From Candidatus Gottesmanbacteria bacterium UBA6580 (GTDB lineage: Bacteria > Patescibacteriota > Microgenomatia > UBA10105 > UBA927): DNA of 64,000 nt. The notes below the pieces were generated by a model that ran no database searches, was not told the origin of the DNA, and was given only the letters and a program-made list of their open reading frames with translations. The stretch lies in NCBI GenBank assembly GCA_002433895.1, contig DJJA01000003.1, positions 107,185 through 171,184 on the forward strand, written 5' to 3'. The translations under genes were made by a program, and so were the position numbers. Position 1 is the first letter of the stretch; each line of letters begins with the position of its first letter. Positions 5,806-34,117 of this stretch are shown here, piece after piece.

Positions 5806-5915
5806 TTACTTCACTATAGCACACAAAACACAGCCGCCTCGACCGCTTGACAAGCTGAGGCTGGTTGTTTAGTATGTGGACAACTTATCCACAGACTGCT
5901 CTTTACCTCATAAAT

Positions 5916-8582: not shown

Positions 8583-9581
8583 TTACAACGCGGAGACGAT
8601 TGTGGTGGTGCGGAGCAACGCCGACCCCTCTGTTTCTTCTGCAGACCCCTCAAAGACAAAGACTGGGATAAGATAGTTCTGGAGCGCAGAATAGAAGTAT
8701 CCAAGTGAAACATCGGTAATTTTGATAGCGCTTGGGGCCTCTCCCGTCATAAACTTCTGGTCACCCTGTTTTGTTAAAGAGACGCTGGAAAGCACCCCTC
8801 TGTTTGCCCGCAAGCGGGACACGGCTTCACTATAGGGGACAATCGCGAGGTTTTGTTCAGTGCGTGACACATCTGGTAGTATAAAACCGAGAATTTCGGT
8901 GATGGCGCCGTCACCGTTGATGCTTGCCGAAAAAACGGGCGTGTTTGCGTCGTTTACGTAGAGAGGAATACCATCGAGCGTAACGGTATAGTTTAGACGC
9001 GTAATAACTGCCCCTTGGGGACCGGTTAATTCGGTTGGGTGGGGATCATTAAAAGACAAAAACTGTTGGCTGAGTAGCGTTGTCGTGTAAGGAGCGGGAA
9101 GCACAGAGAGCTCAGTAAGCGCGCTTTGTACTAGTGAGGAGTATGTGTTGAGATCGTTTGAAACAAACCTTCCCGACGTGCTCGCTATCTGAAACGCGAA
9201 AGAAAGCGGGTTTTCAGAGATCAGTCCTGACCTCCCGTTCTGCGAAAAACTTGCATATCTCCCTTTTGATCCGGCTATAACGTTGGGGATAGCGCTGGGA
9301 GCGTAAAGCGCAAACAAACGGGAGCGCTCAGATTCAAAGCTTCTTACGCGGGTTATTTCGTAATATGGCACGCTCGTGGGGAACGTTGCCTCTATGTCTC
9401 CGGAGTAGGTGATAAAGCCACTTGAGAGCGGCTGTGGCATAACCGATGGATTAATGGGTGAAGGGGTAATAAGTTGTGTTTGTCGGCCGCCTTGGGGCAC
9501 CGGAGATCTTTGTATGACTAGCGCCCCGATAAGTAGGAGAAGAAAAACAGTAAGCCCGATAATAATACGTTTTTTATTCAT
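8583..9581 (-). CDS. secreted / membrane-anchored hypothetical protein, last gene of the T4SS-like operon
   Basis: Likely start MNKKRIIIGLTVFLLLLIGALV (signal/anchor) at 9581, directly abutting the stop of the upstream M23 gene (9583); Ser/Thr-rich, beta-rich; no motif recognised. Confidence 0.45.
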   Translation of the reverse strand: MNKKRIIIGLTVFLLLLIGALVIQRSPVPQGGRQTQLITPSPINPSVMPQPLSSGFITYSGDIEATFPTSVPYYEITRVRSFESERSRLFALYAPSAIPNVIAGSKGRYASFSQNGRSGLISENPLSFAFQIASTSGRFVSNDLNTYSSLVQSALTELSVLPAPYTTTLLSQQFLSFNDPHPTELTGPQGAVITRLNYTVTLDGIPLYVNDANTPVFSASINGDGAITEILGFILPDVSRTEQNLAIVPYSEAVSRLRANRGVLSSVSLTKQGDQKFMTGEAPSAIKITDVSLGYFYSALQNYLIPVFVFEGSAEETEGSALLRTTTIVSAL

Positions 9582-9582
9582 A

Positions 9583-11742
9583 TTATTGACACCCCGGAGG
9601 TAGCGGAATAGGAACGTTTTGGTTTGGTCCTTTATACCCCCAATGTAAATGCGTTCCTGTGCCTGGACCGTTGTTGCCATAAGTATACCCTGTTGTATCA
9701 ACATACCCAATAACAGTGCCGGCAGGGATAAGCGTTGGTGAGCCGGAGTTTGCTGCAACCACTGGTGACACATCTAGTAAATGAGCATAATTTGTACAAT
9801 ATTGCTGTTTTGTGGAGGGGTCGGTCGCGACAAGCACCACATTGTTTCCGTAACTTGCCGCCTTGTATTGATACGGTAGATAAGAGTTTGCGTATGAGGC
9901 GATATAGGCGTCGTGAGCTGCAACCACCGGCGTTCCCTGTGCTGCAGCAAAATCCCATGCATTAAGCGTTTTATGAGATCCCGTTGAGGTGAACGGCCCC
10001 TGGCTAATCGGCGCGCGTACCGGGCAAGTGGTGATAGGGGCGACCGGCGAGGTTCCACTCCATACACAACTAAACGTTGTTACATCAGCCGCAACCTCAT
10101 TTATTTCTTGTTTAAGATTTCTCAGTGATGCGAGGATGGCACTCACTTTGGCGCTATGTGAAATAAGGGACAAATTAAGCGGCGAAGGAAAGACAAATAA
10201 AAATATAAGCGCAACAATGACGATTATCGATACGAGAAGCGGCATGTCCTGTCCCATGGGGATGGGAATAGTGGCCGCCCTTCTGGAGCTAGAGAGCTGA
10301 CGGGGGATAAGGGGGTTCGTTAAGAAGAATGACGCTGACCGGTCGACAAACGCGCCTATAGCGCCGCCGACGGCGTTATTAAGCGCGCTTAGTCCAAACC
10401 ACGGGAAAAATGAGGCGCGCACCTTTCTTTTTTGCCGTGCCGTTTTTACGGCCGCCGTCTCGGTAGCGCGAAACACGTCCCACGGGGCAATAGTTGAAGG
10501 TAAGAAGTTCCTTCCTTTTGGTGACGTGGCACTTGCGCGCGCAAGCTCGAAATAATCAAGGACGCGCTCTTTTGTGCCATGAGTAAGAACCGGGCCCAGC
10601 GGCCCCCGGAACACCGAAGAAAACACGTCGCTTACCAGTGACCGTGCCTGTCCCGATTGTTGTCTTTCAGATAGTTGGTGGGTAAGATTTTGAGATATAT
10701 TCGTGAACAATGCGCTATGGACAAAATTTTCTCCAAGCCGGTCAGTAAAGCTTTGCGCGCTTGTTAACATTGATCTGAGCGTGCCATTTACTTTTTCATG
10801 GATAATCATTTCCCGAAGTGGTTCTCCCACAAGAGATAAAACACCATCGGCTCCCTGTTGGAGCCCCTTCGCCGCCCCTTTTGCGTTTGCCGCAGAGAAA
10901 AAGTTTAGTCCACCGTTCCTTTCTTGTTTTGCCTCGAGCGATTCGGCGATGTGCGCCAATTTATTTGCCCGGGCAAGCGATTCGGCGGTTGTTTCAGAAG
11001 GGGGGGCGTTTAACACCACATCGACGAGCACGTCGGGGCGCTTCATATCAATATCGTCATAGAGCGCTGTCGTGAGCGTCGCGGCGCGCTTTGCCTGTTG
11101 TGTGACGCCCGAGACATACGCATTGTTCGCTTCAAGGACGTCGTTAATGGTTGTTTTTAACTGGGCTGCCTGTTCCTGGGTTAATGTGCCCCCGGTTATT
11201 GCGTTTGAGGCAAGTATAAGTTCTGCAAATCTTTCTTTTGTTTGTTGCTGTGTTGCTTCTCCTGATGCTGCGATGAGGGCGCTGTCGGCAACAGCACCCA
11301 CCCGGTCTTCGGAAAGCGTGGGCATGGTCGAGCTAAACCGCGTTACCAGATCATGAACAAACGCGCGCCGCCGCTCTTTTTGACTGGTAACCGAGGTTGC
11401 TGCAGCCTGTTTTATGCGCGATGAGGCGTATTTCCGCACTTCACCCACAGCTTTCACCTCGTTTTCCAACAGCGCTTGGTCGGGAAGTTGCGATTGAAAA
11501 TTAGGGAGTTCTTTTAGTTTTTCTGAGCCCCGGGAAACAATTTCCGTAAACACCTTAACCAATTCGTCTTCCCCCATGATCTCTGCCTGCCCCAGAGATG
11601 TTTTTTGCTCCTCTATGAGTTCCCGAAGATATGAATACTGGCTTGCCGCGGCAATCGCTTCGTATATAGAAATGCTCCCCGAAGCGACGTCAGATAGTAG
11701 GTTATCAGCAAATTCACGGAGCGTTTGAGGATCGTTTGCCAT
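9583..11742 (-). CDS. T4SS-associated cell-wall hydrolase: large helical N-terminal domain, single TM, C-terminal M23 (LytM-type) metallopeptidase
   Basis: C-terminus carries the M23 signature (AWDF, HDAY, YGNNVVLV, YAHLLDV, GTHLHWG = HxxxD ... HxH); TM helix MPLLVSIIVIVALIFLFVF at about aa 495-515; N-terminal 480 aa helical with no motif. Confidence 0.6.
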   Translation of the reverse strand: MANDPQTLREFADNLLSDVASGSISIYEAIAAASQYSYLRELIEEQKTSLGQAEIMGEDELVKVFTEIVSRGSEKLKELPNFQSQLPDQALLENEVKAVGEVRKYASSRIKQAAATSVTSQKERRRAFVHDLVTRFSSTMPTLSEDRVGAVADSALIAASGEATQQQTKERFAELILASNAITGGTLTQEQAAQLKTTINDVLEANNAYVSGVTQQAKRAATLTTALYDDIDMKRPDVLVDVVLNAPPSETTAESLARANKLAHIAESLEAKQERNGGLNFFSAANAKGAAKGLQQGADGVLSLVGEPLREMIIHEKVNGTLRSMLTSAQSFTDRLGENFVHSALFTNISQNLTHQLSERQQSGQARSLVSDVFSSVFRGPLGPVLTHGTKERVLDYFELARASATSPKGRNFLPSTIAPWDVFRATETAAVKTARQKRKVRASFFPWFGLSALNNAVGGAIGAFVDRSASFFLTNPLIPRQLSSSRRAATIPIPMGQDMPLLVSIIVIVALIFLFVFPSPLNLSLISHSAKVSAILASLRNLKQEINEVAADVTTFSCVWSGTSPVAPITTCPVRAPISQGPFTSTGSHKTLNAWDFAAAQGTPVVAAHDAYIASYANSYLPYQYKAASYGNNVVLVATDPSTKQQYCTNYAHLLDVSPVVAANSGSPTLIPAGTVIGYVDTTGYTYGNNGPGTGTHLHWGYKGPNQNVPIPLPPGCQ

Positions 11743-11747
11743 AAAGG

Positions 11748-13664
11748 TTAGCCGGTTTTATTGGTTTGTACGGTTTCGACAGTGAAAATAGGACGATTTG
11801 ATTTCGGAAGCGCAGTCGCTTCCTGTGTCACCGGTTGGGCGTCGTGTTGAGGCGCCTGGTTTACCCCCGGTTTTTCCGCGAGCGCCTCTTGAGGTCTGGT
11901 GGTTGCAACCTCGTGTTCCTCTGGGCTTGCGATGACCCGCATGGCGGCATGCGCGGGACCCGCAAAAAATAACCCTTGTCCCACGTCTGCCGCAAGAAGT
12001 AGGTGTTTTTCTCCTTCAGAAAGATAAAACACCTGCGCGATTGTATCAATCGCCGCAGAAGACTGTTTGAGTAAAATTTGCATACTGCTGTTTTGAATAA
12101 TCGCCTTGCCCATTTCTGTTGCAAGAAAATCTTCCACATCTTGTGTGATGGTTGTAAGCCCAAGATAGTATTTGCGCGCCCGCTTCGCGATACCGTAGAG
12201 AAACTGTGCAGAATCTGGATATTTCATAAGGTACCACGCTTCATCCACGATAAGTAACCGTCGGCGTTTGTTATATCTGATTTTGTTCCAAATAAAATCC
12301 AGGATGAGATACATGGCAATGGGCCGCAGCTCATCTTCCAGATCGCGGATAGAAAACACCGTAAGCTGGTTTCTGATTGCTACATTTGTTTGTTGATCAA
12401 AAATACCCACAAGGCTTCCCCGGACAAATTTTTCTATTCGGTCGGCGAGTCCTTTCGCGAGCACCTCTTCCATGCCGACAAGCGTTTTGTATAAATCCTC
12501 CATTAGTGGTGGCTCTTTTGAGTGTGTGGAGGGGTCGGGGGTAATCCCTTTTTGTTTGTAAGTTAATATAATCGCGCGATCAAGCAACGCATCTTCTGTG
12601 GGGGTGAGCCTCCCCATTACCACCCGGAAAAATCCATGAAGCGACAATATTTTTTGACCCAACTCGCTTTCGTCGTTGCTGCCCCCAGACAGAAGCGCAA
12701 GGTCAAACGGATTTATTTTTGTGGACGATCCGAAACGGAAGCGTATATATTCGCCCCCCAGTGTGTGGGTAAGATTTTCATATTCGTTTTCCGGATCAAT
12801 GATAATTACTTCGGTATCAAACATGAGGCTCCGCATAACCTCAAGCTTCACCATGTAGCTTTTTCCGCCTCCTGACTTACCAAACACAACCGAATTCGCG
12901 TTTTCGAGAGTAAACCGGTCAAAAATAATAAGCGAATCGTTGTGTTCGTTGAGACCATAAAGAATGCCTTCGTTTGCTGTAAGCTCACTTGTCGTGAACG
13001 GGAATGTTGTGGCAAGCGACGTGGTGTCCATGTTTCGTGTTACCACGAGCCGGTCTTTTCCTGTGGGAAGCGTTGTTTTTAGCCCCTCTTCCATCTGAAG
13101 GATGGCTTTTTTCGTGACAATGAGTAGTGATCCTAGTGTTGCTTCCACCTGTTTCGTCGCTTTATCAAGATCCTCGCGGGTTTTAGCGGGGATAGTGACA
13201 TAGAGACCAAATTGGAAAAAGCGCTCAGAGCCTTTTGCCAACTCTTGTTGAAGCGCTAGCGCGTCTTCCAGCGCAACCTGGACTGATGGTTCAATAACGC
13301 GTCCGCGTTTAAGGTCGGACTGTATCGTTGCTTCCATTTCTCCAACTTTGCGCTTAAGGTTTTCGAGAATTTCCTCGCTTCTCGTGGGGTAAATATACAT
13401 GGAAATATCGAGCGTGTGATTAAATGAAATAAGCGGCTCCAGCCAGTTTGCCGAAACAAAACGGGGGTAGCCCGCTACAAAAAGCGTCCGGTAGTACCAG
13501 TCGCCAACCTTAAGCAGGTCAAAATCTACTTCGATTGCGGGCGGCGCAATAACATCAGTAACGGTTAGAGGTTTTTGCCTGAGCGATGCGGCTCCACCCT
13601 TCGGTAGGGGCGGGGACCCCACCATTCGTCCTAGTAACGATGCGATATTTTTTGAATTAGACAT
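11748..13664 (-). CDS. VirB4/TrbE/PrgJ-family type IV secretion ATPase
   Basis: Walker A VVFGKSGGGKSYMVK, Walker B LLIVDEAWYLM, later IITQ motif; N-terminal region like Gram-positive VirB4 homologues; start MSNSKN (13664) is preferred because it just overlaps the upstream gene end. Confidence 0.8.
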   Translation of the reverse strand: MSNSKNIASLLGRMVGSPPLPKGGAASLRQKPLTVTDVIAPPAIEVDFDLLKVGDWYYRTLFVAGYPRFVSANWLEPLISFNHTLDISMYIYPTRSEEILENLKRKVGEMEATIQSDLKRGRVIEPSVQVALEDALALQQELAKGSERFFQFGLYVTIPAKTREDLDKATKQVEATLGSLLIVTKKAILQMEEGLKTTLPTGKDRLVVTRNMDTTSLATTFPFTTSELTANEGILYGLNEHNDSLIIFDRFTLENANSVVFGKSGGGKSYMVKLEVMRSLMFDTEVIIIDPENEYENLTHTLGGEYIRFRFGSSTKINPFDLALLSGGSNDESELGQKILSLHGFFRVVMGRLTPTEDALLDRAIILTYKQKGITPDPSTHSKEPPLMEDLYKTLVGMEEVLAKGLADRIEKFVRGSLVGIFDQQTNVAIRNQLTVFSIRDLEDELRPIAMYLILDFIWNKIRYNKRRRLLIVDEAWYLMKYPDSAQFLYGIAKRARKYYLGLTTITQDVEDFLATEMGKAIIQNSSMQILLKQSSAAIDTIAQVFYLSEGEKHLLLAADVGQGLFFAGPAHAAMRVIASPEEHEVATTRPQEALAEKPGVNQAPQHDAQPVTQEATALPKSNRPIFTVETVQTNKTG

Positions 13665-14319
13665 TTGATTCCTTTCCAAGACTTAACATAGTAACGTCTG
13701 GCGGCGGATTTCCCGGATTGTACATACTGAAAAACAGTTTTACGAGTGCATCAGAGTTAAGTTGTACTGCGTGTAACCCAACTCTCGCGAGCAACCGCAC
13801 AAGGTGATCTCTTTTGGGGAGAAGCACGGTTTGCGCACGGTCGTATATATATGATTTTTCGTAAGGTAGCCCGCCCTTTTTGGGTCCGAATAAAAGTGTA
13901 GAAGATACGCCGAGCTCCACGCTGGAAAACGGAAGGACTATATAGAATTTTTTGTCGAGCACATCCTTTTCTTTTACCATAGACGCGACAAACAGCCGGT
14001 ATCCATGAATACTCTTTGTAAGTTTCGGGTTTTTTTGACGCGCCTCCTGATCTTCGAGCAGCTTGAGGTAGGCAGAAATGTCCTTGTGTTTTGTCTGAAT
14101 AAGAATTTGGATAGGAAATGAAAGGGAGTTGAGTAATCCCGCATACGCGTAAATAATTGCGTCCTGTTCTTTTTCAGAAAGCAGGCCGAAATTGACCGCC
14201 GTTGTGGCAATAACGAGCGAGACTGATCCATCAGCAAACATAACAAGATCACGGTCAATATCGACAATTTCCGTAAATACTTGTGTGGATGCCCGTATGG
14301 GTGTAATTGGTTCTGCCAT
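13657..14319 (-). CDS. hypothetical T4SS operon protein
   Basis: ORF between the PrgI-like gene and virB4; preferred start MAEPITPIR at 14319 (the alternative at 14385 would overlap the upstream gene by 60 nt); no motif. Confidence 0.4.
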   Translation of the reverse strand: MAEPITPIRASTQVFTEIVDIDRDLVMFADGSVSLVIATTAVNFGLLSEKEQDAIIYAYAGLLNSLSFPIQILIQTKHKDISAYLKLLEDQEARQKNPKLTKSIHGYRLFVASMVKEKDVLDKKFYIVLPFSSVELGVSSTLLFGPKKGGLPYEKSYIYDRAQTVLLPKRDHLVRLLARVGLHAVQLNSDALVKLFFSMYNPGNPPPDVTMLSLGKESNV

Positions 14320-14323
14320 ATAA

Positions 14324-15652
14324 TTAAACGGATGTTTTTCCGAAAATTTCCTGGGCGAGCTTTTCGCGCGTGAGCACCTTTTCACTTTTAGCGATTATTT
14401 CGAGTACGGGAACGACCGTGCCATTGAGGGTGATCTGTACCCTGGTAAAAGTAAATCTTCCCCGCGGGTCTTCTATTTCTACAAAGTACACGCCGCTTGT
14501 AAGTGGTGTTGACGCGGCAAATTGTCCGAGCTTGTTTGTTTTGAGCGCGCGCATGGGCACCCCCTCACCGTTTGTGACAGTAACAAGAATGCCGGGCAAC
14601 AAGTTGCCTACGTCATCTTTGACAAGGCCAGTGATCACATTTGGCGCGTTCGTCAGACGCGGTAGCCCCACCTTTACCGCCCCCTCCTCAGTTGTAATGA
14701 CATTAACTGTGCCGCGGGACGACCCCGCAAGGCTATCTTCCCGAGGGGTCGTTGCCCGGGGTGATACTGGCTGTGGCGGAGCCTCCCTGCGTTTGAGTGC
14801 GACCAACTGCTCTTCTGTGTTTGTTTTTGCCGCAAGTGTTTCGGTGAGTTGTTTTTGTAATTCAAGTACCCGCTCTTCCGTCATGGTTTTTGTCGCAAGC
14901 TTTGCTTCGAGAGCCGCGAGGGTTTCCTCAAGCTGTTTAATTTTCTGCTGTGTTTCCTCACTTACCACGCTAGAGGTGGTCTGAGGCGCAGGTGGCGGTG
15001 GCGCCTCGACGTGTTGACCGGTAACCGATGGAACCGGACGCGCAACGGGTGGAGCGGGAGTTGGATGATGTGCGGGTGCTGCTACATGTTTTGGACGGAA
15101 CAAAGACATGATTTCATCGATAAGTGTTACGTGTGGTTTCTGTGCATGCACAGTCATTGGAGAAGTGGGGTGGGGCGTTTGCTGGGCGCCGGCATTTCCC
15201 GGCTGAAACAAGTCAGAAAGCGCGCTTTTCGGGTTCGTTTGTGGTGCTGTTGCGGGTTTTGCCGCTGGTGTCTGCGGAGGGATGACAGGAGCCGCTGACA
15301 CAGCGGCAGCAGGTTTGTTGCCCTGAGGCGTTGGCGGTGCCTTGGCGGCGGGAGGCGTCATTGATGCTTCATGTGACCAAATGTATTGTGTGGGGTTATA
15401 GATGCTTTTAAAGAAAGAAAAAACCCACACATCCATCGGCCGCTCCTCGATTGGGATAAAAGCAAACCCTATACCTAAAAAAGCGAACGCACCGGTAAGC
15501 GGCCAGGTGATAATAAAAGGGAGGGGTAGTTTATACGCGATAAACGCGAGAATTGCTCCGGCACACAAGTAGCCGAATTGTTTCAGCGTCATGTCGCCGA
15601 TCAGCCGAAACTGAAACGTCGTAACATTTTGAGGGACAGGATGTTGTTCCAT
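14324..15652 (-). CDS. PrgI/VirB3-like membrane protein fused to Pro/Ala-rich linker, coiled coil and C-terminal carboxypeptidase-regulatory-like / Cna-B-like beta-sandwich domain
   Basis: N-terminus NVTTFQFRLIGDMTLKQFGYLCAGAILAFIAYKLPLPFIITWP with two TM helices resembles PrgI-family (VirB3 analogue) proteins; then a PAAKAPPTPQ-type low-complexity stretch, a heptad coiled coil (QQKIKQLEETLAALEAKLATKT...), and C-terminal GILVTVTNGEGVPMRALKTNKLGQFAAS..GVYFVEIEDPRGRFTF typical of CarbopepD_reg-like folds. Confidence 0.55.
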   Translation of the reverse strand: MEQHPVPQNVTTFQFRLIGDMTLKQFGYLCAGAILAFIAYKLPLPFIITWPLTGAFAFLGIGFAFIPIEERPMDVWVFSFFKSIYNPTQYIWSHEASMTPPAAKAPPTPQGNKPAAAVSAAPVIPPQTPAAKPATAPQTNPKSALSDLFQPGNAGAQQTPHPTSPMTVHAQKPHVTLIDEIMSLFRPKHVAAPAHHPTPAPPVARPVPSVTGQHVEAPPPPAPQTTSSVVSEETQQKIKQLEETLAALEAKLATKTMTEERVLELQKQLTETLAAKTNTEEQLVALKRREAPPQPVSPRATTPREDSLAGSSRGTVNVITTEEGAVKVGLPRLTNAPNVITGLVKDDVGNLLPGILVTVTNGEGVPMRALKTNKLGQFAASTPLTSGVYFVEIEDPRGRFTFTRVQITLNGTVVPVLEIIAKSEKVLTREKLAQEIFGKTSV

Positions 15653-15774
15653 GTACCCTTCATTGTAGAGGGAAAAATTAAGGTGTTCAATAGCACAAAG
15701 CGCATCAGGACCGTGAAAACTCCACTTTTAGAGTTTTCACGAATGAAAAAAATAATCTATGATAAGATAGCCTC

Positions 15775-17961: not shown

Positions 17962-17967
17962 CCCCCT

Positions 17968-18522
17968 ATGAATATAGGACTGTTGGGAGGCGCGTTTAAC
18001 CCGCCGCATTTTGGCCACCTCATGATTGCCCGCCAGGTGTTGGATTTTACCGATACAGACGAGGTGTGGTTTTTGCCTAACTTTGGCCAGATTCCTCCAA
18101 AGCCTGTGGCTGGTGTTGCTGACCGGCTTGCGATGACGAAGTTATTACGGCTTCCAAAAACACGGGTGTCCACGATAGAGATAGACAATTCGCTTGATGG
18201 GGACACGATCCATTTGCTTCCGTATTTGCCCAAAGAGCATAATTTCCGCTTTATTATCGGCTCCGACCAGCTTCCGACGTTTCACTTGTGGGGACGGTGG
18301 GAAGAGTTGCTTCGTTCAATGCCGTTTTTAGTGTTTCCAAGGTATGGGTTTCCCAACGAGCCGTTGTATCCGAACATGACACTCGTTTCTAACGAGCTGC
18401 TTGTGGGAACGAATATTTCATCGACAAAAATCCGCAAGCGGGTTGAGCGCGGGTTGTCCATTGAGGAGTTTGTGCCCCCCAACATTGCTTCGTATATCAC
18501 CTCACATGGGTTATACCGATAA
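17968..18522 (+). CDS. nadD: nicotinate-nucleotide adenylyltransferase
   Basis: GGAFNPPHFGH (HxGH nucleotidyltransferase motif) and ISSTKIRKRV (ISST motif). Confidence 0.85.
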   Translation: MNIGLLGGAFNPPHFGHLMIARQVLDFTDTDEVWFLPNFGQIPPKPVAGVADRLAMTKLLRLPKTRVSTIEIDNSLDGDTIHLLPYLPKEHNFRFIIGSDQLPTFHLWGRWEELLRSMPFLVFPRYGFPNEPLYPNMTLVSNELLVGTNISSTKIRKRVERGLSIEEFVPPNIASYITSHGLYR

Positions 18523-18609
18523 GCTCCCTTGTTCTTCGTGAGATGACAGGATAGAATTATGGTAAGCGCATCTATGCGGCGCGTTGTTTCGTGTAATTTT
18601 ACTTAGTGT

Positions 18610-21600
18610 ATGGCAAACGAAGAATTATTCAAACGGTTGAGTGAAGCAGCCAAAAAAGCAGCGGAGGGTGGCGGACAGCCAAAGCCGCCAGAGGCCCCGC
18701 CGCCACCAGAAGCTCCCGAAGTGAAGCTTGGAGAGCACAATAAGCAGGCCGGTGCAAAAGAGGTCAATAAGGAGCGGGTCGCAAATCTTGCGGCAAAGCT
18801 TGCTGAGGCAACCTCAGAAACCACAAAACGCCTTGTGGGAAGCGAAGTTGATTTTCCGACCGACGAGCGGGTATTTTCTGTCATCGAATCCCTGATTACC
18901 GCCGATGAGTCGCAGCTTGCGGATCCGGAATACATGCGGGGCATCGGGCAGCAGTTGGTGGCATTGGCAAAAGAGTCGGGGCTAACAAGCCCGACCGCGG
19001 TTGAGGCGCGGCGGTATTTACGGAAAATTGTCGCCGAACACCCGAGTCTTAGTGACCTACAGTATGAAGCTGTACCTATTATAGCTGGGGGATCGGGTAA
19101 ACCGGATGAGGAGGCAAACGACGAAGCGACCGTGGACAAGGATCCGGAACTGACCCAAGAGGTGGGTAGATTATTTAATGAGACCGCTGACACCGATCTA
19201 AAAGACACAGCAATTGCCTCTGACTTGCAGGAGCTTCAGTACCGTTTCCGTGTAGATCCGGGAGCCGCATATGACAGTAGGCTTACCGATGATGCGGTGC
19301 GACGCATGGTTGAAAAGGGGAGGCGCGAAGGGCTTGATCCAAAGCTGGTACAGAAAGCAGTGGAGCGGGTGCGTTATTTTGAGCGGTTCACCGACTTGCG
19401 GCACCAGAAATATCAGGAAAAGCTCCGCGGCGGAAGGAGCGTGGCCTGGTCAGAAATCATGGAAAATTCCCCACAGAAGTCGTTGCACGAGCCGGATGAC
19501 GTGTTTACCGATTTCCGATCCATGCCGCCTGCTGATGTAGAAACCATAATTCAGGGGGACGAGGGCGAGGCGAAGTGGTATTTCGATTTTATTGACCAGA
19601 TTTATTCCATGGGACGGGAAGAAACCCGGCCAAGCCTCACCCATGAACAACGCTTTCAGGAGTTTAAAGATTACCTTGTGTGGAAATATGGTAGTGAGTA
19701 TCACATCGCCGTGCAGATGTATCAGAAGCATTGGGATAGCCGCGGACAATATGAATATGCAGTTAAAGGACTCATGTATAACCCGGGCGACGTGAAAGAC
19801 AGGTTAAAGGCGATGTCGTTGTTGCAGGGGGCTGATCTTGACCACCTTTATAAAAACTTTGACCACTCAAACGAAGCATATAGCTTGTACGAACACGTAT
19901 TGTTTGAGCTTATGGCAACCAAGCGCGCGAAATACGGAGAGGCGCTAAAGTATTTGCGCGAAGACATCACATGGAACGGGAAAACCATGAAGCGCGAAGA
20001 CATCCTCAAAGAGCTCAAAGCGAAGCAGCGGATGGAGGGCTATGACCCGACCAAAGGAAAAACACAAAGTCCTCTCTCTATTGAGGATCAGCGGTTGATG
20101 CACGAAATACAACAGCAGATGGATTTAGCGGCGGAAGGTGTCATGTTGTGGGATGACGACGTGCAAAGTTATACCGAGTTACACATCACCCTTACCAAAT
20201 TGCGGAATAGCCGTGAGCAGCTTCTCAAAAAGAAGAGTGCTGGTACCGCGCTTACTGAAAAAGAGGCGGACCAGCTCGGTGAAATTGACAGGCTATATCA
20301 GATCTATTCCCACCGGGAAGAAATGCTTAATGAAAATTTTACCCAGGAGCTATTGGAAACGCGCGGACTTTCCCCGGTCGACATTGAGGTTCGCAAGCGG
20401 TTGGTGGGCTACCTTAAAGCACAGCATCCGGAAGACCCGAACTACAAACCGGCTGAATATGAAGTCCGTATGGCGTTATGGGCATCACGGACCGCCATGA
20501 TTGGCTCAGGACGCATGGCGATGATTGGCGCCATGATGTCGGTGCCTCCCGCTGTCGAATACGGGACATCGTCAGGTAAGCACGTCATGCGCGCGCCGGC
20601 GTTTGAAGATATCCAGCGTATTTTTAATCCGGAAACATTTGCTACCCGTTTTAATATCGGTGGCGACATGGGTATTACCGCGCGGAGCATATTCCGAAAA
20701 AACTTAATGAGAACGAAAGGGATTAATCCTAAAGAGCCTGGATGGTTTAAGAAAATGTCCGGCGCCGCAGAGAGTTTGGGGCGTAAGTTTAAACTCACCA
20801 AAACGAAAGAATGGCATGAGGCGAAGCATCATGAGCATGACAAGCAGCGGCAGCAGTCGATGGAAACATGGGAGTTTGCCGAGGACGCAACCGGTATATC
20901 ATTTAGCGAGTTGTTGGGTCCTGGATTTATGGCAAGCGGAGGATTTTATGATGGAACCGCGTGGCGTCTGGAAAAGGGAGTGGCAGACGAGCTTCGTGGA
21001 AAAATGCTAAGTCTGAAAAAATTGCCCGAAAACGCCGCGCTTTTGGATAATCAGGCGCTTTCTATACAGCTATTGACCGCGGGAAATGCCGCAGAACGCA
21101 AACCAATACTCGACCGCATGCTGCGGCGGAACCCATCGAAGTTTTTGGAGTTGTTGGAGGAAGATACAGAGCGCATATTGACGAAGAATAAGGTGACACA
21201 CGAAGAGTGGAAGAAGTTTAAAGAAGCACTTTCTCTTGCTGAGCTTAAGATGGCTCACGAGAAAGACTGGCAATTTGCACGTATAGATCTTGCTGAGAAA
21301 AAAGATTTTGATGCATTGGTGGTGCCATATCTCAACATATTGAAGCTTGACCCCGCGCGGAGTGAAAGTCTGCGCCAGGTGATCGTCGATATGCAGGCCG
21401 AAATATATCGCGGCCGCAAAGTTGATGCTTCAGGGGGCACCTTTAATAATAAAATGGACGCTATTGCCGCGCTCAAACTTCCACTCACCATGAGCTTGAC
21501 CGACTTTGATTGGAAAGAATCCAACTTTTACCAACTTGGTACCGTTGCTATGCACCGTCGTATTCGAGATGTCGGCGCACAGATGCGTGCCCGTGACGCG

Positions 21601-22221
21601 ATGCTTGGGTTTTTCTCGAATGAAGAGATGGCGCTCTCACCCAATGACTACACGAAATCGCTGCAAAAGATTATGGAGGTGCGCACCGCTATCGTCGATT
21701 ACTCAGGGCCGGATGCTGCGGAGGCGACCGCAAAAGAAATGTTACGGGTATTTTTTGAGATGAACAGACACAGAAGTCTTGGAAGCATTGCCTGGATACC
21801 GGGACTGACGGGGCTGTTACAGCACTGGGAGCCTGATTTCCGGGGGCTCGAAAACAACAAACTTATGCAGTTGCTGATTGGCAAAGAGCGGTGGCAGCAT
21901 TTAGCGAAAGAAAAGATTTCCCATTGGCCACATTCGGTGGCCGAGGCGATTTCATATTCTACGCGGTACACGGGATCACATGGAAATGTGTGGGATGAGG
22001 CCAAGATGGCGGAAATATTGCACACCGCGCATGATATGGGACTGTTTATTAATCACCCTGAGTACCTCAAGGATCTGGAAAAAGAGTTCAAAACCAGCGC
22101 GACGCACCGGTTGAGTGCGTTGTACCGAAAGTATTGGTGGGTGGTGCTCGCTGCGACGGTTGCTATAGCCATAGAGCGGGCGACGAAGGAGCAGGAGAGT
22201 GGGGGCGGAGGAGGACATTAA
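18610..22221 (+). CDS. large (1203 aa) helical protein of unknown function with Pro/Ala-rich N-terminus and C-terminal TM helix
   Basis: Uninterrupted 3.6-kb ORF; N-terminal QPKPPEAPPPPEAPE; predominantly charged/helical; C-terminal YWWVVLAATVAIAIERA hydrophobic helix followed by a GGGGGH tail; no catalytic motif recognised. Confidence 0.5.
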   Translation: MANEELFKRLSEAAKKAAEGGGQPKPPEAPPPPEAPEVKLGEHNKQAGAKEVNKERVANLAAKLAEATSETTKRLVGSEVDFPTDERVFSVIESLITADESQLADPEYMRGIGQQLVALAKESGLTSPTAVEARRYLRKIVAEHPSLSDLQYEAVPIIAGGSGKPDEEANDEATVDKDPELTQEVGRLFNETADTDLKDTAIASDLQELQYRFRVDPGAAYDSRLTDDAVRRMVEKGRREGLDPKLVQKAVERVRYFERFTDLRHQKYQEKLRGGRSVAWSEIMENSPQKSLHEPDDVFTDFRSMPPADVETIIQGDEGEAKWYFDFIDQIYSMGREETRPSLTHEQRFQEFKDYLVWKYGSEYHIAVQMYQKHWDSRGQYEYAVKGLMYNPGDVKDRLKAMSLLQGADLDHLYKNFDHSNEAYSLYEHVLFELMATKRAKYGEALKYLREDITWNGKTMKREDILKELKAKQRMEGYDPTKGKTQSPLSIEDQRLMHEIQQQMDLAAEGVMLWDDDVQSYTELHITLTKLRNSREQLLKKKSAGTALTEKEADQLGEIDRLYQIYSHREEMLNENFTQELLETRGLSPVDIEVRKRLVGYLKAQHPEDPNYKPAEYEVRMALWASRTAMIGSGRMAMIGAMMSVPPAVEYGTSSGKHVMRAPAFEDIQRIFNPETFATRFNIGGDMGITARSIFRKNLMRTKGINPKEPGWFKKMSGAAESLGRKFKLTKTKEWHEAKHHEHDKQRQQSMETWEFAEDATGISFSELLGPGFMASGGFYDGTAWRLEKGVADELRGKMLSLKKLPENAALLDNQALSIQLLTAGNAAERKPILDRMLRRNPSKFLELLEEDTERILTKNKVTHEEWKKFKEALSLAELKMAHEKDWQFARIDLAEKKDFDALVVPYLNILKLDPARSESLRQVIVDMQAEIYRGRKVDASGGTFNNKMDAIAALKLPLTMSLTDFDWKESNFYQLGTVAMHRRIRDVGAQMRARDAMLGFFSNEEMALSPNDYTKSLQKIMEVRTAIVDYSGPDAAEATAKEMLRVFFEMNRHRSLGSIAWIPGLTGLLQHWEPDFRGLENNKLMQLLIGKERWQHLAKEKISHWPHSVAEAISYSTRYTGSHGNVWDEAKMAEILHTAHDMGLFINHPEYLKDLEKEFKTSATHRLSALYRKYWWVVLAATVAIAIERATKEQESGGGGGH

Positions 22222-22264
22222 GAACGCCTCTGTGTTGTGAAGCTGTTGGGCGCGTTTCCCATTT

Positions 22265-23872
22265 TTAGTGGCCGCTGCCACCACCAGTAATGGAGCTGAG
22301 GCCTTTATCAGCGCCCTCACGCGCAATTTGCATCGGCGTTCTCGCTTCCGGCTTGTGGCGGAATGCGCTTGCGATAAAGCTCGCCTGATATCCTAGGTTA
22401 AATAGCGTGCCGACTCCTGATCCCAACGGGCCAACGATAGGTCCGATGCCGCCCGGTACGACCGGTTCTGCCTTAAGTGATTTCTGTAGTCCGGCAACAA
22501 TCGTCGGGATAACCATAAGCATGCCTAGGCCTATAAGACCCGCCATGCCATATGTTCCTTCACCCGTTGAAAGTAGGGGAGGCGCCCAAATAGATGTTGC
22601 GGTGTCCTGAGACGTAAGCACCGCGGTGATGAGGAGTAAGAGCACAGTGATAGGAAATACCAGAATTTTTGATAACAAGTTCCGGAACCACGAGTTAAAC
22701 GCGTTTGTTCCAGGAATTGCCTCCATCATCAGCTGGAACGGGGCGGTGAGCAAGGCGATAATGATGTTAATGTAGGCGTCCAAAAGCATAAAGATAAGCC
22801 GGATGACGCCGAAAAGCAAAATGATAAGGAAGATAACCGCAAGCAGCACCGGGCCGCTTGTTAATCCTAATAATGCCCCGCGTAAACCAAACATATAGCC
22901 AATAACTCCGGGAACCACTGTCCAGCCAGCCACTTTCATCGGATCATTCTGTGTAATCATGGTTCCGATATCGTCATATGCCTGAAAGCCGCTGGCAAAA
23001 AAGAACCGTAGGAGCCCGCTAACGCCACCGTTTAAAAGCAGTCCCGTGGCGTTATCCGGATCTGATGTTGTTGATGGAGCAGAAAAGCTCGGCGGCAATA
23101 AATCGATGTTGAGCGTAGTTGCGAGACTTAATAGTCTACCAAGGTTTCCACCTGACGCGCTGTCTACCGCGGAAGCTGAAAGCACGATGGCAAGATACAT
23201 AAGGTCAATCATGGCTCCTACTATGGCATAGGAGAAGGTGACGAGTCCCAACGCTATGACAATTCTCGGGATGGCATTTTGCACGGTAACCACAGTTTTC
23301 GGGTCAATTTTTTTCCGGAACATCACCATGAAGCCAACGACAATTATAATTGCGGCAAGCAGCGCGTAGGCGATGTTCCGAAATGTTTTCCAGAGAGGTA
23401 GCATGCTTTGGAGTCCGGAAAAACCAATGCCCTGCGCTTCTGCTTTGGGCGGCATAAATCCGAGCGTTCTCCCGACGTCCGCAATATATTCCGAGCTCCG
23501 TGCGGGAGGGTGTTGATACATCGCAAGCGTGCTCCGAGCCATGCCTGCAAGCGCGCTTTTTTGATAGCTTAGTCCGATAGGACAATCCGGATATGCAGCG
23601 TCACAGAGTCCGCGAAATCCCACGAGGAGTTGTACCTGGGCGATAGTGGAAGTGCCGGCGTCCCCAACTTGTTTATTAAGTGCTCCCACTTCCGCGGCCT
23701 TCATAAATCCTGCGATGACGCAGTTTACGTCCATAAACCATGTTGCATCATCACATTCATTTGCTGTTGTGGTGGCGCTATCTGCTCCTTGTGCCAGAGC
23801 GGGCACGGGAATAGCAAGAAATACCACAGCGGCAACAATGAACGCCCAAACATACGTTTTGATACGCGACAT
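22265..23872 (-). CDS. VirB6/TrbL-like polytopic T4SS inner-membrane channel protein
   Basis: Signal peptide MSRIKTYVWAFIVAAVVFLAIPVPALAQG, Cys-containing N-terminal periplasmic segment, then at least 7 hydrophobic helices with long Gly/Ala-rich TMs; terminal gene of the pilin array. Confidence 0.5.
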   Translation of the reverse strand: MSRIKTYVWAFIVAAVVFLAIPVPALAQGADSATTTANECDDATWFMDVNCVIAGFMKAAEVGALNKQVGDAGTSTIAQVQLLVGFRGLCDAAYPDCPIGLSYQKSALAGMARSTLAMYQHPPARSSEYIADVGRTLGFMPPKAEAQGIGFSGLQSMLPLWKTFRNIAYALLAAIIIVVGFMVMFRKKIDPKTVVTVQNAIPRIVIALGLVTFSYAIVGAMIDLMYLAIVLSASAVDSASGGNLGRLLSLATTLNIDLLPPSFSAPSTTSDPDNATGLLLNGGVSGLLRFFFASGFQAYDDIGTMITQNDPMKVAGWTVVPGVIGYMFGLRGALLGLTSGPVLLAVIFLIILLFGVIRLIFMLLDAYINIIIALLTAPFQLMMEAIPGTNAFNSWFRNLLSKILVFPITVLLLLITAVLTSQDTATSIWAPPLLSTGEGTYGMAGLIGLGMLMVIPTIVAGLQKSLKAEPVVPGGIGPIVGPLGSGVGTLFNLGYQASFIASAFRHKPEARTPMQIAREGADKGLSSITGGGSGH

Positions 23873-23909
23873 AGTGTAATTATCCGTGATACATTCCGCT
23901 AAAGTCAAT

Positions 23910-24221
23910 CTACTGGGTTATTGTAAAGTCGGTAACTGTGACACCAGTAAATTTTTCTATAGTGAGAATAATAAGATAGGCGACCGACATAAGAATTATT
24001 CCTGCGATGGCCTGGGTGACTGATCCTTTGGCTGCCTCTAGCTTTTTTTGGTCGCCGGCAGAAAACAGGAAATTAAATCCGCCAACAAGAAGCATGACAA
24101 ATAACGCGACCGCGCCTAGTGATACCACTGCCCGAATAACGCCGGTAACAAGGGGGACAATACATTGAATAGAAGCGACACCTTCGGCTCCCGGTATGTT
24201 TGCGCACGCGTCAGAGTTCAT
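23910..24221 (-). CDS. T4SS pilin-like protein (VirB2/TrbC-like two-helix pilin), paralog 1
   Basis: 103 aa, two hydrophobic helices separated by the conserved FSAGDQKKLEAAK..ITQAIAGIILM loop shared by all paralogs. Confidence 0.6.
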   Translation of the reverse strand: MNSDACANIPGAEGVASIQCIVPLVTGVIRAVVSLGAVALFVMLLVGGFNFLFSAGDQKKLEAAKGSVTQAIAGIILMSVAYLIILTIEKFTGVTVTDFTITQ

Positions 24222-24288
24222 ACTGCTATTATACGAGTATCAGAAGAGGGGTGACAAGCACACTTTTCTGTTTTATACGCTTCGTGTT

Positions 24289-24618
24289 TTAGTAAGGCTT
24301 CGGGAAATTAATTGAGCCGCCAATGATCTGGACGCCCAAGAAGTTTTGGACGAGTGTCATAATGGCCCAAGCAGCGCCCACAATGATGAGTCCGACGATT
24401 GCATGGGTAATCTTATTCCGCGCTTCTTCCATGCCTGCCTTGTCGCCACCTGAGGTGATCCATTTAATACCTCCCAAAATGAGGTAAAGAAATGCCAAAA
24501 GCGCTGCGATAATAAGCACGGTTCCGACAAGCGCGCTGATAAGCTTGCCAACATCGGTAATTTTAATGGAATCCGGCTGCTTAATATCTAATGCGGCCTG
24601 GGCAAATACTTTGTTCAT
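24289..24618 (-). CDS. T4SS pilin-like protein, paralog 2
   Basis: 109 aa; GGIKWITSGGDKAGMEEARNKITHAIVGLIIVGAAWAI core between two TM helices. Confidence 0.6.
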   Translation of the reverse strand: MNKVFAQAALDIKQPDSIKITDVGKLISALVGTVLIIAALLAFLYLILGGIKWITSGGDKAGMEEARNKITHAIVGLIIVGAAWAIMTLVQNFLGVQIIGGSINFPKPY

Positions 24619-24703
24619 AAATGAATCCTTTCGTCAAATCAATACAGCCTTTATTATACCATCATTTACCATTTTTGCGCAACAAAACAAGATTTGTCAA
24701 TCC

Positions 24704-25048
24704 CTAGTTAGTGATTGTTGGGATAGGGAGATTCGGGAAATCGATACCAAAAAAGTTACCCACAATCATCATGACTGCCCAGGACGCGCCCACCACGACC
24801 AACCCGACGAGCGCGTTGGTAATTTTGTCACGGGCAGACTGAAGCTTTGTTTTGTCGCCGCCACTTGTTACCCAGTCAAATCCACCGAGGAGCATGTAAA
24901 GAAGAGTAGAGATAAACGCCAAGATAAGGAATAAACCAACAAGCGCGCTGATCAACGAACCGATAGCCAGCGGACCCACTTCGTTGCCGCCTTGCCCGAG
25001 ATTACCGGGAAGAACGGGATTGACGATTTGTGCGAGGTGTCTATTCAT
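24704..25048 (-). CDS. T4SS pilin-like protein, paralog 3
   Basis: 114 aa; GGFDWVTSGGDKTKLQSARDKITNALVGLVVVGASWAV core. Confidence 0.6.
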   Translation of the reverse strand: MNRHLAQIVNPVLPGNLGQGGNEVGPLAIGSLISALVGLFLILAFISTLLYMLLGGFDWVTSGGDKTKLQSARDKITNALVGLVVVGASWAVMMIVGNFFGIDFPNLPIPTITN

Positions 25049-25050
25049 GG

Positions 25051-25416
25051 TTATTGGTTCGGACTGAGTAGTTCCATCAATCCGCTCGGATCAGACAGTG
25101 TGAAGTCAAAACCAAAGAATGTGCTGGCAAGCGCAAGTATTGCCCAGCCAGCGACAACCACGATAAGCCCGACAAACGAGTTGGTAAGCCGGTCTTTTGA
25201 GCTTTGGAGCTTTGCTTTATCTCCGCCGGAGTTAATCCAATTAAATCCTCCAATGACAAACTGAAATAGAAACCATATACCGGCAGCGACGGTCATGATG
25301 CCAATAACAGAAGACACAACCTTGGTAATGCCGGTAAGCCCGTCTCCTGGCGCGTTGCCGAAAGGCCCCAAGCCTTCACCGCCAATTTGTCCTAATTCAA
25401 GCGCTAAGTATTTCAT
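25051..25416 (-). CDS. T4SS pilin-like protein, paralog 4
   Basis: GGFNWINSGGDKAKLQSSKDRLTNSFVGLIVVVAGWAI core; start MKYLALELGQ at 25416 is preferred because it abuts the upstream gene stop (25418). Confidence 0.55.
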   Translation of the reverse strand: MKYLALELGQIGGEGLGPFGNAPGDGLTGITKVVSSVIGIMTVAAGIWFLFQFVIGGFNWINSGGDKAKLQSSKDRLTNSFVGLIVVVAGWAILALASTFFGFDFTLSDPSGLMELLSPNQ

Positions 25417-25417
25417 G

Positions 25418-25777
25418 TTATTCGTTTGGCCCGTAAATTGTCGGATTGAGAATAAAATCCGCCCGTCCAAATATGAGATGCCCAAATAGCGAAGCTATGG
25501 CAAATGATCCAACAATGATAACGAGACCTAAGAGTGATTGCCATATGCGGCTCCATGCCTCAGCAAGTTTTTTGCTGTCGCCCGCGGCGTTCATGTAGTT
25601 GTAACCGGCGATGATGAAATTAAAGAGTGCATATATGCCTGCGGCGACAAATGCCAAGCGGAGGATGTTCGTGATAAACATGCCGACCGCACCGGTTTGT
25701 ATGCTGCCATACCCGGTGCCCGACAACGGGCTTTCTATTGATCCGACGATGTCTCCAACTTGCGCCAATTCTTTCAT
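25418..25777 (-). CDS. T4SS pilin-like protein, paralog 5
   Basis: 119 aa; AGYNYMNAAGDSKKLAEAWSRIWQSLLGLVIIVGSFAI core. Confidence 0.55.
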   Translation of the reverse strand: MKELAQVGDIVGSIESPLSGTGYGSIQTGAVGMFITNILRLAFVAAGIYALFNFIIAGYNYMNAAGDSKKLAEAWSRIWQSLLGLVIIVGSFAIASLFGHLIFGRADFILNPTIYGPNE

Positions 25778-25784
25778 ACAATAA

Positions 25785-26132
25785 TTATTGCGGGCTCAGT
25801 ATGTTTAGACCGGTGATGACCTCTATGATTTGTATGATCCAAAATGAACCCAATACGATAAGAAGTCCCGCTATCGCGCCGGTGAGCGCCGTTTTGCCTT
25901 GCTGCGCTTTTTTTGCGTCTCCCGCGGCTACTATAACGTTAAATCCGCCGAAAATCAACAAAATGAAGCTTAAAATACCAGCAAGCATGAAGGCATTTTT
26001 TACGATGGCGGTCACCAGCATGCCGAAGTTGGTCAAATTCGGATTAGGTGCTAATTCCTGTAATGACTGGGCAAACACGCGTTCAAGCATACATTCATAT
26101 TTAAGTGTAAGGAATTTGCCCGGGTCAGTCAA
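25785..26132 (-). CDS. T4SS pilin-like protein, paralog 6 (first gene of the array)
   Basis: GGFNVIVAAGDAKKAQQGKTALTGAIAGLLIVLGSFWI core; an alternative start MLERVF lies at 26090. Confidence 0.55.
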   Translation of the reverse strand: MTDPGKFLTLKYECMLERVFAQSLQELAPNPNLTNFGMLVTAIVKNAFMLAGILSFILLIFGGFNVIVAAGDAKKAQQGKTALTGAIAGLLIVLGSFWIIQIIEVITGLNILSPQ

Positions 26133-26158: not shown

Positions 26159-26698
26159 ATGAATGACGCAACGCTTATTGCCCGACTATTCGCCCATGAC
26201 CGGCGGGCTGCCGCAGCGTTTTATCAGCAATACGCCCCACAATTGCGCCGCCACATTCTTGCGAAGGTAAAAACCGAAGAGGACGCCGAAGAAATCCTGC
26301 AGGATACGCTTTTTTCATTTTTGGAAGGGCTTAGGGATTTTCAGCAGAAAAGCAGTGTGCGCACATATCTTTTTTCTATTTGCCACCATAAAATTATTGA
26401 TTACTACCGGAGGAAAAAAATAGGGCATTTTGTATTTTCTCAAATGCCACAGCTTGAGATGCTCGTCTCGCCGTTGCTTGGTCCCGAAGCGGAGCTTGAC
26501 GCAACGCTCGTTAAGGAAAAAATACGGCGGGTGCTGGCGCGCATGTTACCGGTTCACCGGCAGGTGCTGATACTTAAATATCTTGATCATGTGTCTGTTG
26601 AAGACATCGCCGAACGGCTCTCCATAACTTTTAAAAGTGCGGAATCGCGGCTCTTTCGGGCAAGACGCGCGTTCGTTGAATTGTTTGTATCGATATAA
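26159..26698 (+). CDS. RNA polymerase sigma-70 factor, ECF subfamily
   Basis: 179 aa; region 2 (YQQYAPQLRRHILAKV ... LQDTLFSF) and region 4 HTH (LILKYLDHVSVEDIAERLSITFKSAESRLFRARRAF). Confidence 0.75.
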   Translation: MNDATLIARLFAHDRRAAAAFYQQYAPQLRRHILAKVKTEEDAEEILQDTLFSFLEGLRDFQQKSSVRTYLFSICHHKIIDYYRRKKIGHFVFSQMPQLEMLVSPLLGPEAELDATLVKEKIRRVLARMLPVHRQVLILKYLDHVSVEDIAERLSITFKSAESRLFRARRAFVELFVSI

Positions 26699-26704
26699 AT
26701 ACTT

Positions 26705-26935: not shown

Positions 26936-27009
26936 GATTATTGTGGGTATATCATTCCTGTAATAAGGCAACAGCGCGGGTTTTTCGTGCTTTCGTGCGA
27001 CTAACGTAT

Positions 27010-30966: not shown

Positions 30967-30967
30967 T

Positions 30968-34111: not shown

Positions 34112-34117
34112 CATGTT

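Follow-up and report, generated by a model that had tools for sequence, protein, structure and literature searches.

What does a type IV secretion system (T4SS) do when it lies beside a chromosomal replication origin and carries no recognisable relaxase? The question is raised by a stretch of 64,000 nucleotides from Candidatus Gottesmanbacteria bacterium UBA6580 (Patescibacteriota, Microgenomatia; assembly GCA_002433895.1, contig DJJA01000003.1, positions 107,185 to 171,184), referred to here as the window, in which positions 8583-26132 hold a T4SS-like locus. This locus is very probably an instance of the known chromosomal, relaxase-free, pilin-rich T4SS of Patescibacteria, which sits beside oriC and serves host-contact-dependent transfer of macromolecules rather than conjugation.

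Much of this picture is established. The absence of a relaxase, the proximity to the origin and the pilin arrays have all been published (Wang et al. 2023; Quinonero-Coronel et al. 2025), and their observation here is correct but not new. The locus contributes smaller additions, namely fold-level support for a VirB6-like protein, an exported protein resembling YycI, YycH and PepSY domains, and a family of large proteins, represented here by the 1203-residue p1203, with an oligoglycine-histidine tail common with the VirB6-like protein. A preliminary description of the window had already proposed a repurposed, chromosomal and non-conjugative T4SS of Gram-positive style, and this proposal is supported by domain and fold searches, by the lack of mobility genes and by conserved synteny with dnaN.

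The locus and the replication origin

The genes of the locus and of the adjoining origin region are as follows (aa, amino acids).

5865-7283, plus strand: dnaA (Pfam Bac_DnaA, 205 bits)
5875-5893 and 7294-7368: DnaA-box clusters, the latter in the dnaA-dnaN spacer
7465-8571, plus strand: dnaN (three Pfam DNA_pol3_beta domains)
8583-9581, minus strand: p332, 332 aa, an N-terminally membrane-anchored, exported protein and last gene of its operon
9583-11742, minus strand: M23 peptidase protein, 719 aa (Peptidase_M23, 37.1 bits, residues 594-705)
11748-13664, minus strand: VirB4 ATPase, apparently of the MPF_FATA (CD1110) type (NCBIfam NF045971, 402.6 bits; Pfam P-loop_TraG, 88 bits)
13657-14319, minus strand: TrsD-like protein, 220 aa, related to the N-terminal region of VirB4
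14324-15652, minus strand: PrgI/VirB3-like protein, first gene of the operon (Pfam PrgI, E 1.8e-5, 25.7 bits, profile positions 1-87 of 91)
15775-17961, plus strand: VirD4/TraG-like ATPase, 728 aa, divergent from prgI across a 122-nt gap
17968-18522, plus strand: nadD, nicotinate-nucleotide adenylyltransferase (TIGR00482, 127.6 bits; cutoff 112)
18610-22221, plus strand: p1203, 1203 aa, convergent with the VirB6-like gene and with no predicted transmembrane (TM) segment
22265-23872, minus strand: VirB6-like polytopic protein, 535 aa, last gene of the pilin operon
23910-24221, 24289-24618, 24704-25048, 25051-25419, 25418-25777 and 25785-26090 or 26132, minus strand: six VirB2-like pilin genes (PF18895)

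Exact TTATCCACA DnaA boxes occur at 5885, 7294 and 7315, and the cumulative GC skew is lowest at about 6-8 kb; on both grounds oriC is located at about 5.8-7.4 kb. That the locus directly follows dnaA-dnaN, as first described, is borne out by the Pfam matches of both genes and by the p332 stop codon, which lies 11 nt from the end of dnaN. The genes from prgI to p332 form one minus-strand unit read from 15652 down to 8583, with intergenic spacings of -8 to +5 nt; several starts, including those of p332 and the TrsD-like gene, are shorter than the longest open reading frame (ORF).

Most of the gene content given in the preliminary description holds. Its single operon of a PrgI-like protein, an unassigned protein, VirB4, an M23 hydrolase and a secreted protein has its ORFs in place and is supported by Pfam and NCBIfam profiles, and the divergent, soluble TraG/VirD4-like ATPase scores above the cutoffs of two coupling-protein domains and has no hydrophobic segment. 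The six-pilin array ending in a VirB6-like gene holds as well; its pilins match PF18895 and its VirB6-like protein is recognised by fold only. Two genes between the VirD4-like and VirB6-like genes, nadD and the 1203-aa ORF, had been overlooked.

Inheritance and mobility

The relatives considered were 80 species-genome loci in which VirB4 is 64-96% identical to that of the window, with gene content determined by tblastn. The nearest species genome is that of Candidatus Gottesmanbacteria UBA5942 (VirB4 96% identical), and informative record titles among the 80 name either Microgenomatia (Gottesman-, Woese-, Shapiro-, Beckwith- and Chisholmbacteria) or 'Patescibacteria group'. About 35 of the metagenome-assembled genomes are labelled otherwise, mostly as 'uncultured Gammaproteobacteria'; given VirB4 identities of 64-87% and common synteny, these labels are taken to be errors. 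Metagenome contigs from sludge and bioreactors, up to 385 kb in length, also carry dnaN genes identical to that of the window.

All 80 loci have TrsD and VirB4 side by side. In 79 of them the PrgI-like gene comes immediately before this pair, and it escaped detection only in one 2.8-kb contig. Wherever at least 8 kb of downstream flank was available, dnaN follows VirB4 (58 of 58 loci; median gap 3.2 kb), and in 61 genomes the identities of VirB4 and DnaA rise and fall together (Spearman rho 0.88). Because of this core contiguity, dnaN synteny and co-divergence of VirB4 with DnaA, the locus is taken as vertically inherited chromosome and not a mobile element. The arrangement persists in distant relatives: L085 and L086, whose VirB6-like proteins are 55% and 44% identical to that of the window, retain the whole layout in the order six pilins, VirB6-like gene, convergent gene for a protein of about 1200 aa, nadD or another gene, DUF8128-VirD4, and divergent PrgI-TrsD-VirB4.

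Markers of mobility are lacking, as the preliminary description had noted for relaxase, integrase and repeats. A Pfam scan of every ORF of at least 120 aa across the 64 kb found no relaxase, integrase or transposase domain. There is no tRNA gene within 8-27 kb (the nearest is at 42.5 kb), no break in GC content or composition at the locus, and no att-like boundary repeat, the only repeats being short, of low identity and at chance level. A mobile-element reading was considered and rejected, since repeats, tRNAs and composition gave no boundaries. The flanks consist of housekeeping genes, including glycosyltransferases, the mevalonate pathway, uppS, smpB, dnaG, rpoD and typA.

Comparison with known systems

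The closest described counterpart is the T4SS of Southlakia epibionticum ML1 (Saccharimonadia), which adjoins dnaA-dnaN-recF and is essential for epibiotic growth (Wang et al. 2023, Cell; PMC10633639). Its gene order runs from exported proteins through a lysozyme, a peptidase, VirB4, a TrsD-like protein and PrgI to two large ARM-repeat proteins (one VirB6-like), an NTF2-like protein and six pilins, and it has no recognisable relaxase or coupling protein (PMC10633639). The core order of the window locus is collinear with this region (SEML1_0004-0019). Both loci lie directly after dnaA-dnaN(-recF), both have minus-strand genes for exported protein(s), a wall hydrolase or peptidase, VirB4, TrsD-like and PrgI, and both have a VirB6-like protein and six divergent VirB2-like pilins and lack a relaxase. 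They differ in class, the window locus belonging to Microgenomatia, and in several parts. Here a single M23 peptidase stands where ML1 has a lysozyme and a DD-peptidase; the VirB6-like gene follows the pilins and shares their operon, whereas the pilin operon of ML1 is transcribed divergently from it; the VirB6-like protein has just 535 aa and no ARM-repeat extension; genes for a VirD4-like ATPase, NadD and the 1203-aa protein separate prgI from virB6 as insertions; and no NTF2-like (VirB8-like) protein was identified. The preliminary assignment to a Candidate Phyla Radiation lineage was correct, but the likeness to Saccharibacteria is to be read as one between classes, since the organism belongs to Gottesmanbacteria within Microgenomatia.

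A survey of 3,035 Patescibacteria genomes (Quinonero-Coronel et al. 2025, Microb Genom; PMC12102498) placed their VirB4 in a clade nested in MPF_FATA. TrsD was its commonest partner, accompanied by PrgI, VirB6 and VirB2 arrays, especially in Microgenomatia and Saccharimonadia; the arrays held 2-11 genes with a mean identity of 25%, M23 and lysozyme enzymes replaced VirB1, and dnaA and dnaN were enriched near virB4 (PMC12102498). The window locus agrees in its FATA-affine VirB4, its TrsD, PrgI/VirB3 and VirB6 components, its VirB2 array (mean identity 29.8%), its M23-type enzyme in place of VirB1, the absence of a relaxase and, as in other Microgenomatia, the nearby dnaA and dnaN. Together with PMC10633639, the survey matches the earlier statement that pilin-rich T4SS loci are typical of the Candidate Phyla Radiation. 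A difference concerns the type IV coupling protein (T4CP)-like gene, which stands beside virB4 in 27 of 51 loci of the Gottesmanbacteria lineage, whereas only 148 of 5,713 VirD4 homologues were found near virB4 in the survey (PMC12102498).

Gram-positive conjugation systems of the MPF_FATA type (pCF10; CTn2 CD1110/CD1115; pGO1 TrsD) provide a third point of reference. In pCF10 the gene order is prgI-prgJ-prgK-prgL. The window order of VirB3-like protein, VirB4, wall hydrolase and anchored exported protein mirrors it, VirB4 scores above the CD1110 cutoff, a TrsD-like protein is present and there are no outer-membrane core components. Unlike these systems, the window locus is chromosomal and vertically inherited, has no relaxase, oriT or surface adhesin, and possesses VirB2-like pilins, which the Gram-positive systems lack. 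Its hydrolase is of the M23 type and not a lytic transglycosylase or CHAP enzyme, its exported protein is not clearly VirB8-like, and its coupling protein has no N-terminal TM domain. The R388 Trw system (TrwI/VirB6-TrwJ/VirB5 stalk, TrwK/VirB4) and Legionella DotA were compared as well: VirB5 and VirB11 were not found here, there is no VirB7/9/10 outer-membrane core, the organism being assumed from the literature to be monoderm, and the VirB6-like protein is only 9-17% identical to TrwI.

The PrgI-TrsD-VirB4 operon

VirB4 exceeds the NF045971 cutoff of 325 bits, matches the Thermoanaerobacter VirB4 structure (PDB 4ag5) at E 3e-46 and has intact Walker A (GKSGGGKS) and Walker B (LLIVDEA) motifs. 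Its closest plasmid relatives are Gram-positive genes of the CD1110 family, with 30-39% identity. The CD1110 model and the nearest relatives suggest that it belongs with the MPF_FATA and Patescibacteria type. The VirB4 homologue at 5985-7847 of L024 has an in-frame stop and may be a pseudogene or reflect an assembly error.

The TrsD-like protein was assigned through its family. All 40 members match NCBIfam NF041427 TrsD (best E 1.3e-8), none reaching the 200-bit cutoff, and all 40 also match the N-terminal region of VirB4_plasma (best E 4e-10); the window protein alone gives E 1.9e-4 and 5.6e-5, respectively. Derivation as a paralogue of the N-terminal domain of the lineage's own VirB4 was considered, and neither BLASTP nor hhalign against the profile of that VirB4 was significant. 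The kinship of TrsD and VirB4 is visible only through the curated NCBIfam models.

The PrgI-like protein combines an N-terminal two-TM PrgI domain (TM region 26-68) with a proline-rich linker, a coiled region and a C-terminal beta-sandwich resembling CarboxypepD_reg (E 3.3e-5, just under the gathering score). The 719-aa protein consists of an N-terminal region of about 490 aa, a single TM segment at about 492-528 and a C-terminal M23 domain above its cutoff of 28.7 bits, and weakly matches a PHROG endolysin. It is a candidate cell-wall opener, functionally analogous to VirB1, PrgK or CwlT; no SLT or CHAP domain of the kind found in VirB1-like lytic transglycosylases was detected, and Peptidase_M23 is the sole wall-active domain in the locus. 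The exported p332 is built of three tandem alpha+beta modules of the cystatin or PepSY kind, and is YycI/YycH/PepSY-like rather than clearly VirB8-like.

The pilin array and the VirB6-like protein

The six pilins match PF18895 with E values from 1e-10 to 1.5e-4. Each is a two-helix hairpin with a basic loop (GGFxxxxSxGDxxK), and pairwise identity averages 29.8% (range 18-47%). A Sec-type signal peptide is absent from them. Of the seven pilin-domain proteins in the window, five begin with M..(V/L)(F/L)AQ directly before the first hydrophobic helix, a motif that may be a processing site and that suggests a start at 26090 for the sixth pilin gene. The seventh of these proteins (35157-35801, minus strand; 214 aa) lies 9 kb outside the locus, scores above the PF18895 cutoff (28.6 bits), carries a long cysteine-containing N-terminal extension and adjoins a SpoIID-domain protein (35686-37476).

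Divergent from the pilin array, at 26159-27633 on the plus strand, are genes for an extracytoplasmic-function-type sigma factor, a 76-aa ORF and a Yip1-domain membrane protein. The same module occupies the same position in L085 (6294-7714) and L086 (4729-6265), and may act as a sigma/anti-sigma regulator of the pilin operon.

In the VirB6-like protein an N-terminal signal or TM segment is followed by some 120 exoplasmic residues and then by a helical TM bundle, and the protein ends in the tail GGGSGH. Neither it nor 44 homologues matched TrbL/VirB6 or PrgH in Pfam and NCBIfam, and its family profile retrieved nothing relevant among PDB sequences. In predicted fold it comes closest to VirB6, the top matches of the model being TrwI/VirB6 and DotA.

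The VirD4-like ATPase and p1203

The VirD4-like ATPase matches TrwB_AAD_bind (29.1 bits; cutoff 20.5), TraG-D_C (24.9 bits; cutoff 22) and DUF87 (40.4 bits), and has intact Walker A (GKTGTGKS) and Walker B (FYLYVDEF) motifs. TrwB is its only relative in the PDB (E 1.3e-5). Precomputed hits assign the N-terminal 330 aa or so, about one third of the protein, to DUF8128, and the hydropathy scan found no N-terminal TM anchor. The protein also matches PHROG 5156, a family of unknown function (246 bits), and SPO1-like Bacillus phages encode relatives that are about 22% identical to it, such as gp27.4. The housekeeping gene nadD lies between it and p1203; nadD was found in 46 of the 80 related loci and adjoins the T4CP-like gene wherever the latter is present.

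The p1203 family is narrowly distributed. The protein has no family match in Pfam, NCBIfam, PHROGs or PDB sequences, and seven divergent relatives contain no Pfam domain. An exhaustive phmmer search of 1.84e9 proteins retrieved 101 cluster representatives, most of them collinear and with lengths of 1100-1600 aa, and the gene occupies the same position in L005-L012, L085 and L086. Conservation is high and arranged in blocks. The C-terminus runs from RKYWWV through a hydrophobic stretch of about 15 residues and an acidic stretch to GGGGGH, often with a terminal histidine across the family, a pattern that looks like a tail anchor.

The tails of p1203 (GGGGGH; 22190-22221, plus strand) and of the VirB6-like protein (GGGSGH; 22265-22290, minus strand) face each other at the ends of convergent genes. 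Among 843 ORFs in the window only these two end in this way. In the 80 related loci 19 of 3,817 ORFs do so, and all 19 are p1203-type or VirB6-like-type genes, including large proteins that have diverged beyond recognition as p1203 homologues; the relatives concerned are L005-L012, L028, L037, L041, L055 and L075. A bidirectional terminator hairpin, of which the tails would be a by-product, was rejected (RNA fold z-score +0.51), and the cause of the common tails lies at the protein level. The adjacent VirD4-like gene and the p1203 family are lineage-level variations on the general plan.

How the apparatus could work

By analogy with R388 and Gram-positive T4SSs, VirB4 hexamers would be anchored at the membrane by the PrgI/VirB3-like protein, the TrsD-like protein playing an accessory part. 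The M23 peptidase would open the peptidoglycan locally, and p332 might scaffold or regulate it. VirB4 would then pull the six VirB2-like pilins from the membrane and load them onto the VirB6-like platform, so that a pilus or tube extends to the host cell. In favour of such a conduit are a review that proposes one formed by the pilus and the report of host-directed tubular structures, with uptake of host RNA, in the cultured Microgenomatia strain OT8. At the cytoplasmic face, the TM-less VirD4-like ATPase and a tail-anchored p1203 may handle substrate or act as a scaffold. Transfer could run in either direction, as export of effectors or uptake of host material.

A bolder and distinctly doubtful extension is that the Gottesmanbacteria T4SS has gained a cytoplasmic module made up of the TM-less DUF8128-VirD4 ATPase and the tail-anchored p1203 family (1100-1600 aa). 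Such a module would handle the substrate of a conduit for host-derived nucleic acid, such as RNA, or for a large effector, and the oligoglycine-histidine tag common with the VirB6-like platform would mark proteins docked at the same site of the machine.

Alternative explanations

Several points weigh against a host-contact T4SS as the preferred reading. In this lineage the reading draws on the genes themselves. The PrgI-like protein falls 1.3 bits below the Pfam gathering score of 27 bits, and four of the six pilins score 22-25 bits against a gathering score of 26.6, which the other two exceed. VirB6 support is at the level of fold (a pLDDT-70 model, TM-scores 0.24-0.44), and no VirB8-like component, that is, an N-terminal TM segment with an NTF2-like domain, was identified in the locus. 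Position is what ties the VirD4-like ATPase to the T4SS, where it adjoins the virB4 cluster in those 27 of 51 loci; it has distant relatives in phages, a genome carries about two members of its family, most of them at a distance from virB4, and the gene is not essential in S. epibionticum (PMC12102498). For p1203, there is no functional assignment.

A locus of this kind might instead be what is left of an integrative conjugative element that inserted next to the origin and is now decaying. Its VirB4 is of the type found in Gram-positive conjugative elements, 30-39% identical to plasmid CD1110-family genes, and the relaxase and integrase are missing, as decay would predict. Yet all ORFs and ATPase motifs are intact and the genes tightly coupled, the architecture is kept down to 44% identity of the VirB6-like protein, 79-80 of 80 Microgenomatia species genomes possess the core, and neither a composition break nor boundary repeats mark an insertion. 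The homologous S. epibionticum locus is, moreover, essential. The conservation data effectively refute this explanation, to which almost no credence is given. Conjugation that still works, or another form of DNA export, would require a relaxase that is unrecognisable, p1203 for instance, or one located in another part of the genome. In contrast to S. epibionticum, there is a neighbouring VirD4-like coupling ATPase here, and p1203 is large, conserved in blocks and without a family. It matches no relaxase in Pfam, NCBIfam or the PDB, however, and its sole histidine cluster (KHHEHD) falls where conservation is poor. The failure to find any relaxase Pfam family in the 64 kb makes conjugation unlikely; the locus also co-diverges with dnaA and is fixed by oriC in 58 of 58 genomes, and only 109 relaxases are known from the 3,035 surveyed Patescibacteria genomes (PMC12102498). 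Taken together, this leaves conjugation very improbable.

Two further alternatives concern what the machine does rather than where it came from. One accepts the same apparatus and differs in direction: like the archaeal Ced system, the pilus, with VirB4 and the VirD4-like ATPase as motors, would draw in host DNA or RNA to supply an organism unable to make nucleotides. VirB4 weakly matches CedB (E 1.3e-13), the VirD4-like ATPase matches CedD (E 5.5e-8), two TrsD family members weakly match CedA, and a relaxase is absent. A 2026 preprint on the first cultured member of Microgenomatia, strain OT8, describes tubular structures toward the host, possibly T4SS pili, and host RNA taken up as food, and a review proposes the pilus as a conduit and speculates on uptake through it. 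The Ced matches nevertheless lie far under cutoffs and reflect general VirB4/VirD4 homology, and the locus contains no uptake-specific nuclease or channel gene. In S. epibionticum, loss of comEC ends competence but not viability, and transformation-type DNA uptake is therefore not why its T4SS is essential. Import is accordingly considered rather unlikely, while retaining some plausibility. The other alternative, a purely adhesive pilus for host attachment without translocation, would account for six divergent pilins as surface variation for host recognition (see also PMC12102498), for the seventh pilin-domain protein elsewhere in the window and for the lack of an identified substrate. It would not account for a coupling-type ATPase beside the operon in about half of the relatives counted, and attachment in Patescibacteria has already been ascribed to type IV pili, so that adhesion alone is judged improbable.

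Other features of the window

A few observations fall outside the T4SS locus. An ORF of 61-67 aa at 7265-7468 (plus strand) overlaps the spacer DnaA-box cluster, is annotated in two of the four identical metagenome contigs listed and is probably not a real gene. A complete mevalonate operon followed by uppS occupies 27630-34801 (plus strand) and adjoins the T4SS locus in L085 and L086 as well; it comprises hydroxymethylglutaryl-CoA (HMG-CoA) reductase, HMG-CoA synthase, a thiolase with an OB-fold partner, two GHMP kinases and diphosphomevalonate decarboxylase. The 10 kb at 42570-52653 (plus strand) contain seven tRNA genes, five of them for tRNA-Ser, and ARAGORN assigns the unusual anticodon ACT to the tRNA-Ser at 42844-42929. 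An arylsulfotransferase and two sulfatases (42952-45981, minus strand, and 61976-63466, plus strand) form an enzyme set unexpected in a reduced genome of the Candidate Phyla Radiation.

Significance

Patescibacteria make up a large share of bacterial diversity, and in the sole species tested the T4SS is essential. The core order of exported protein, peptidase, VirB4, TrsD and PrgI beside dnaN is common to two distant classes. While the locus does not change the current picture of the Patescibacteria T4SS, it provides a well-resolved example from Microgenomatia, a class first cultured only in the 2026 report, and highlights its lineage-specific parts: the adjacent VirD4-like ATPase, the p1203 family and the common oligoglycine-histidine tail.

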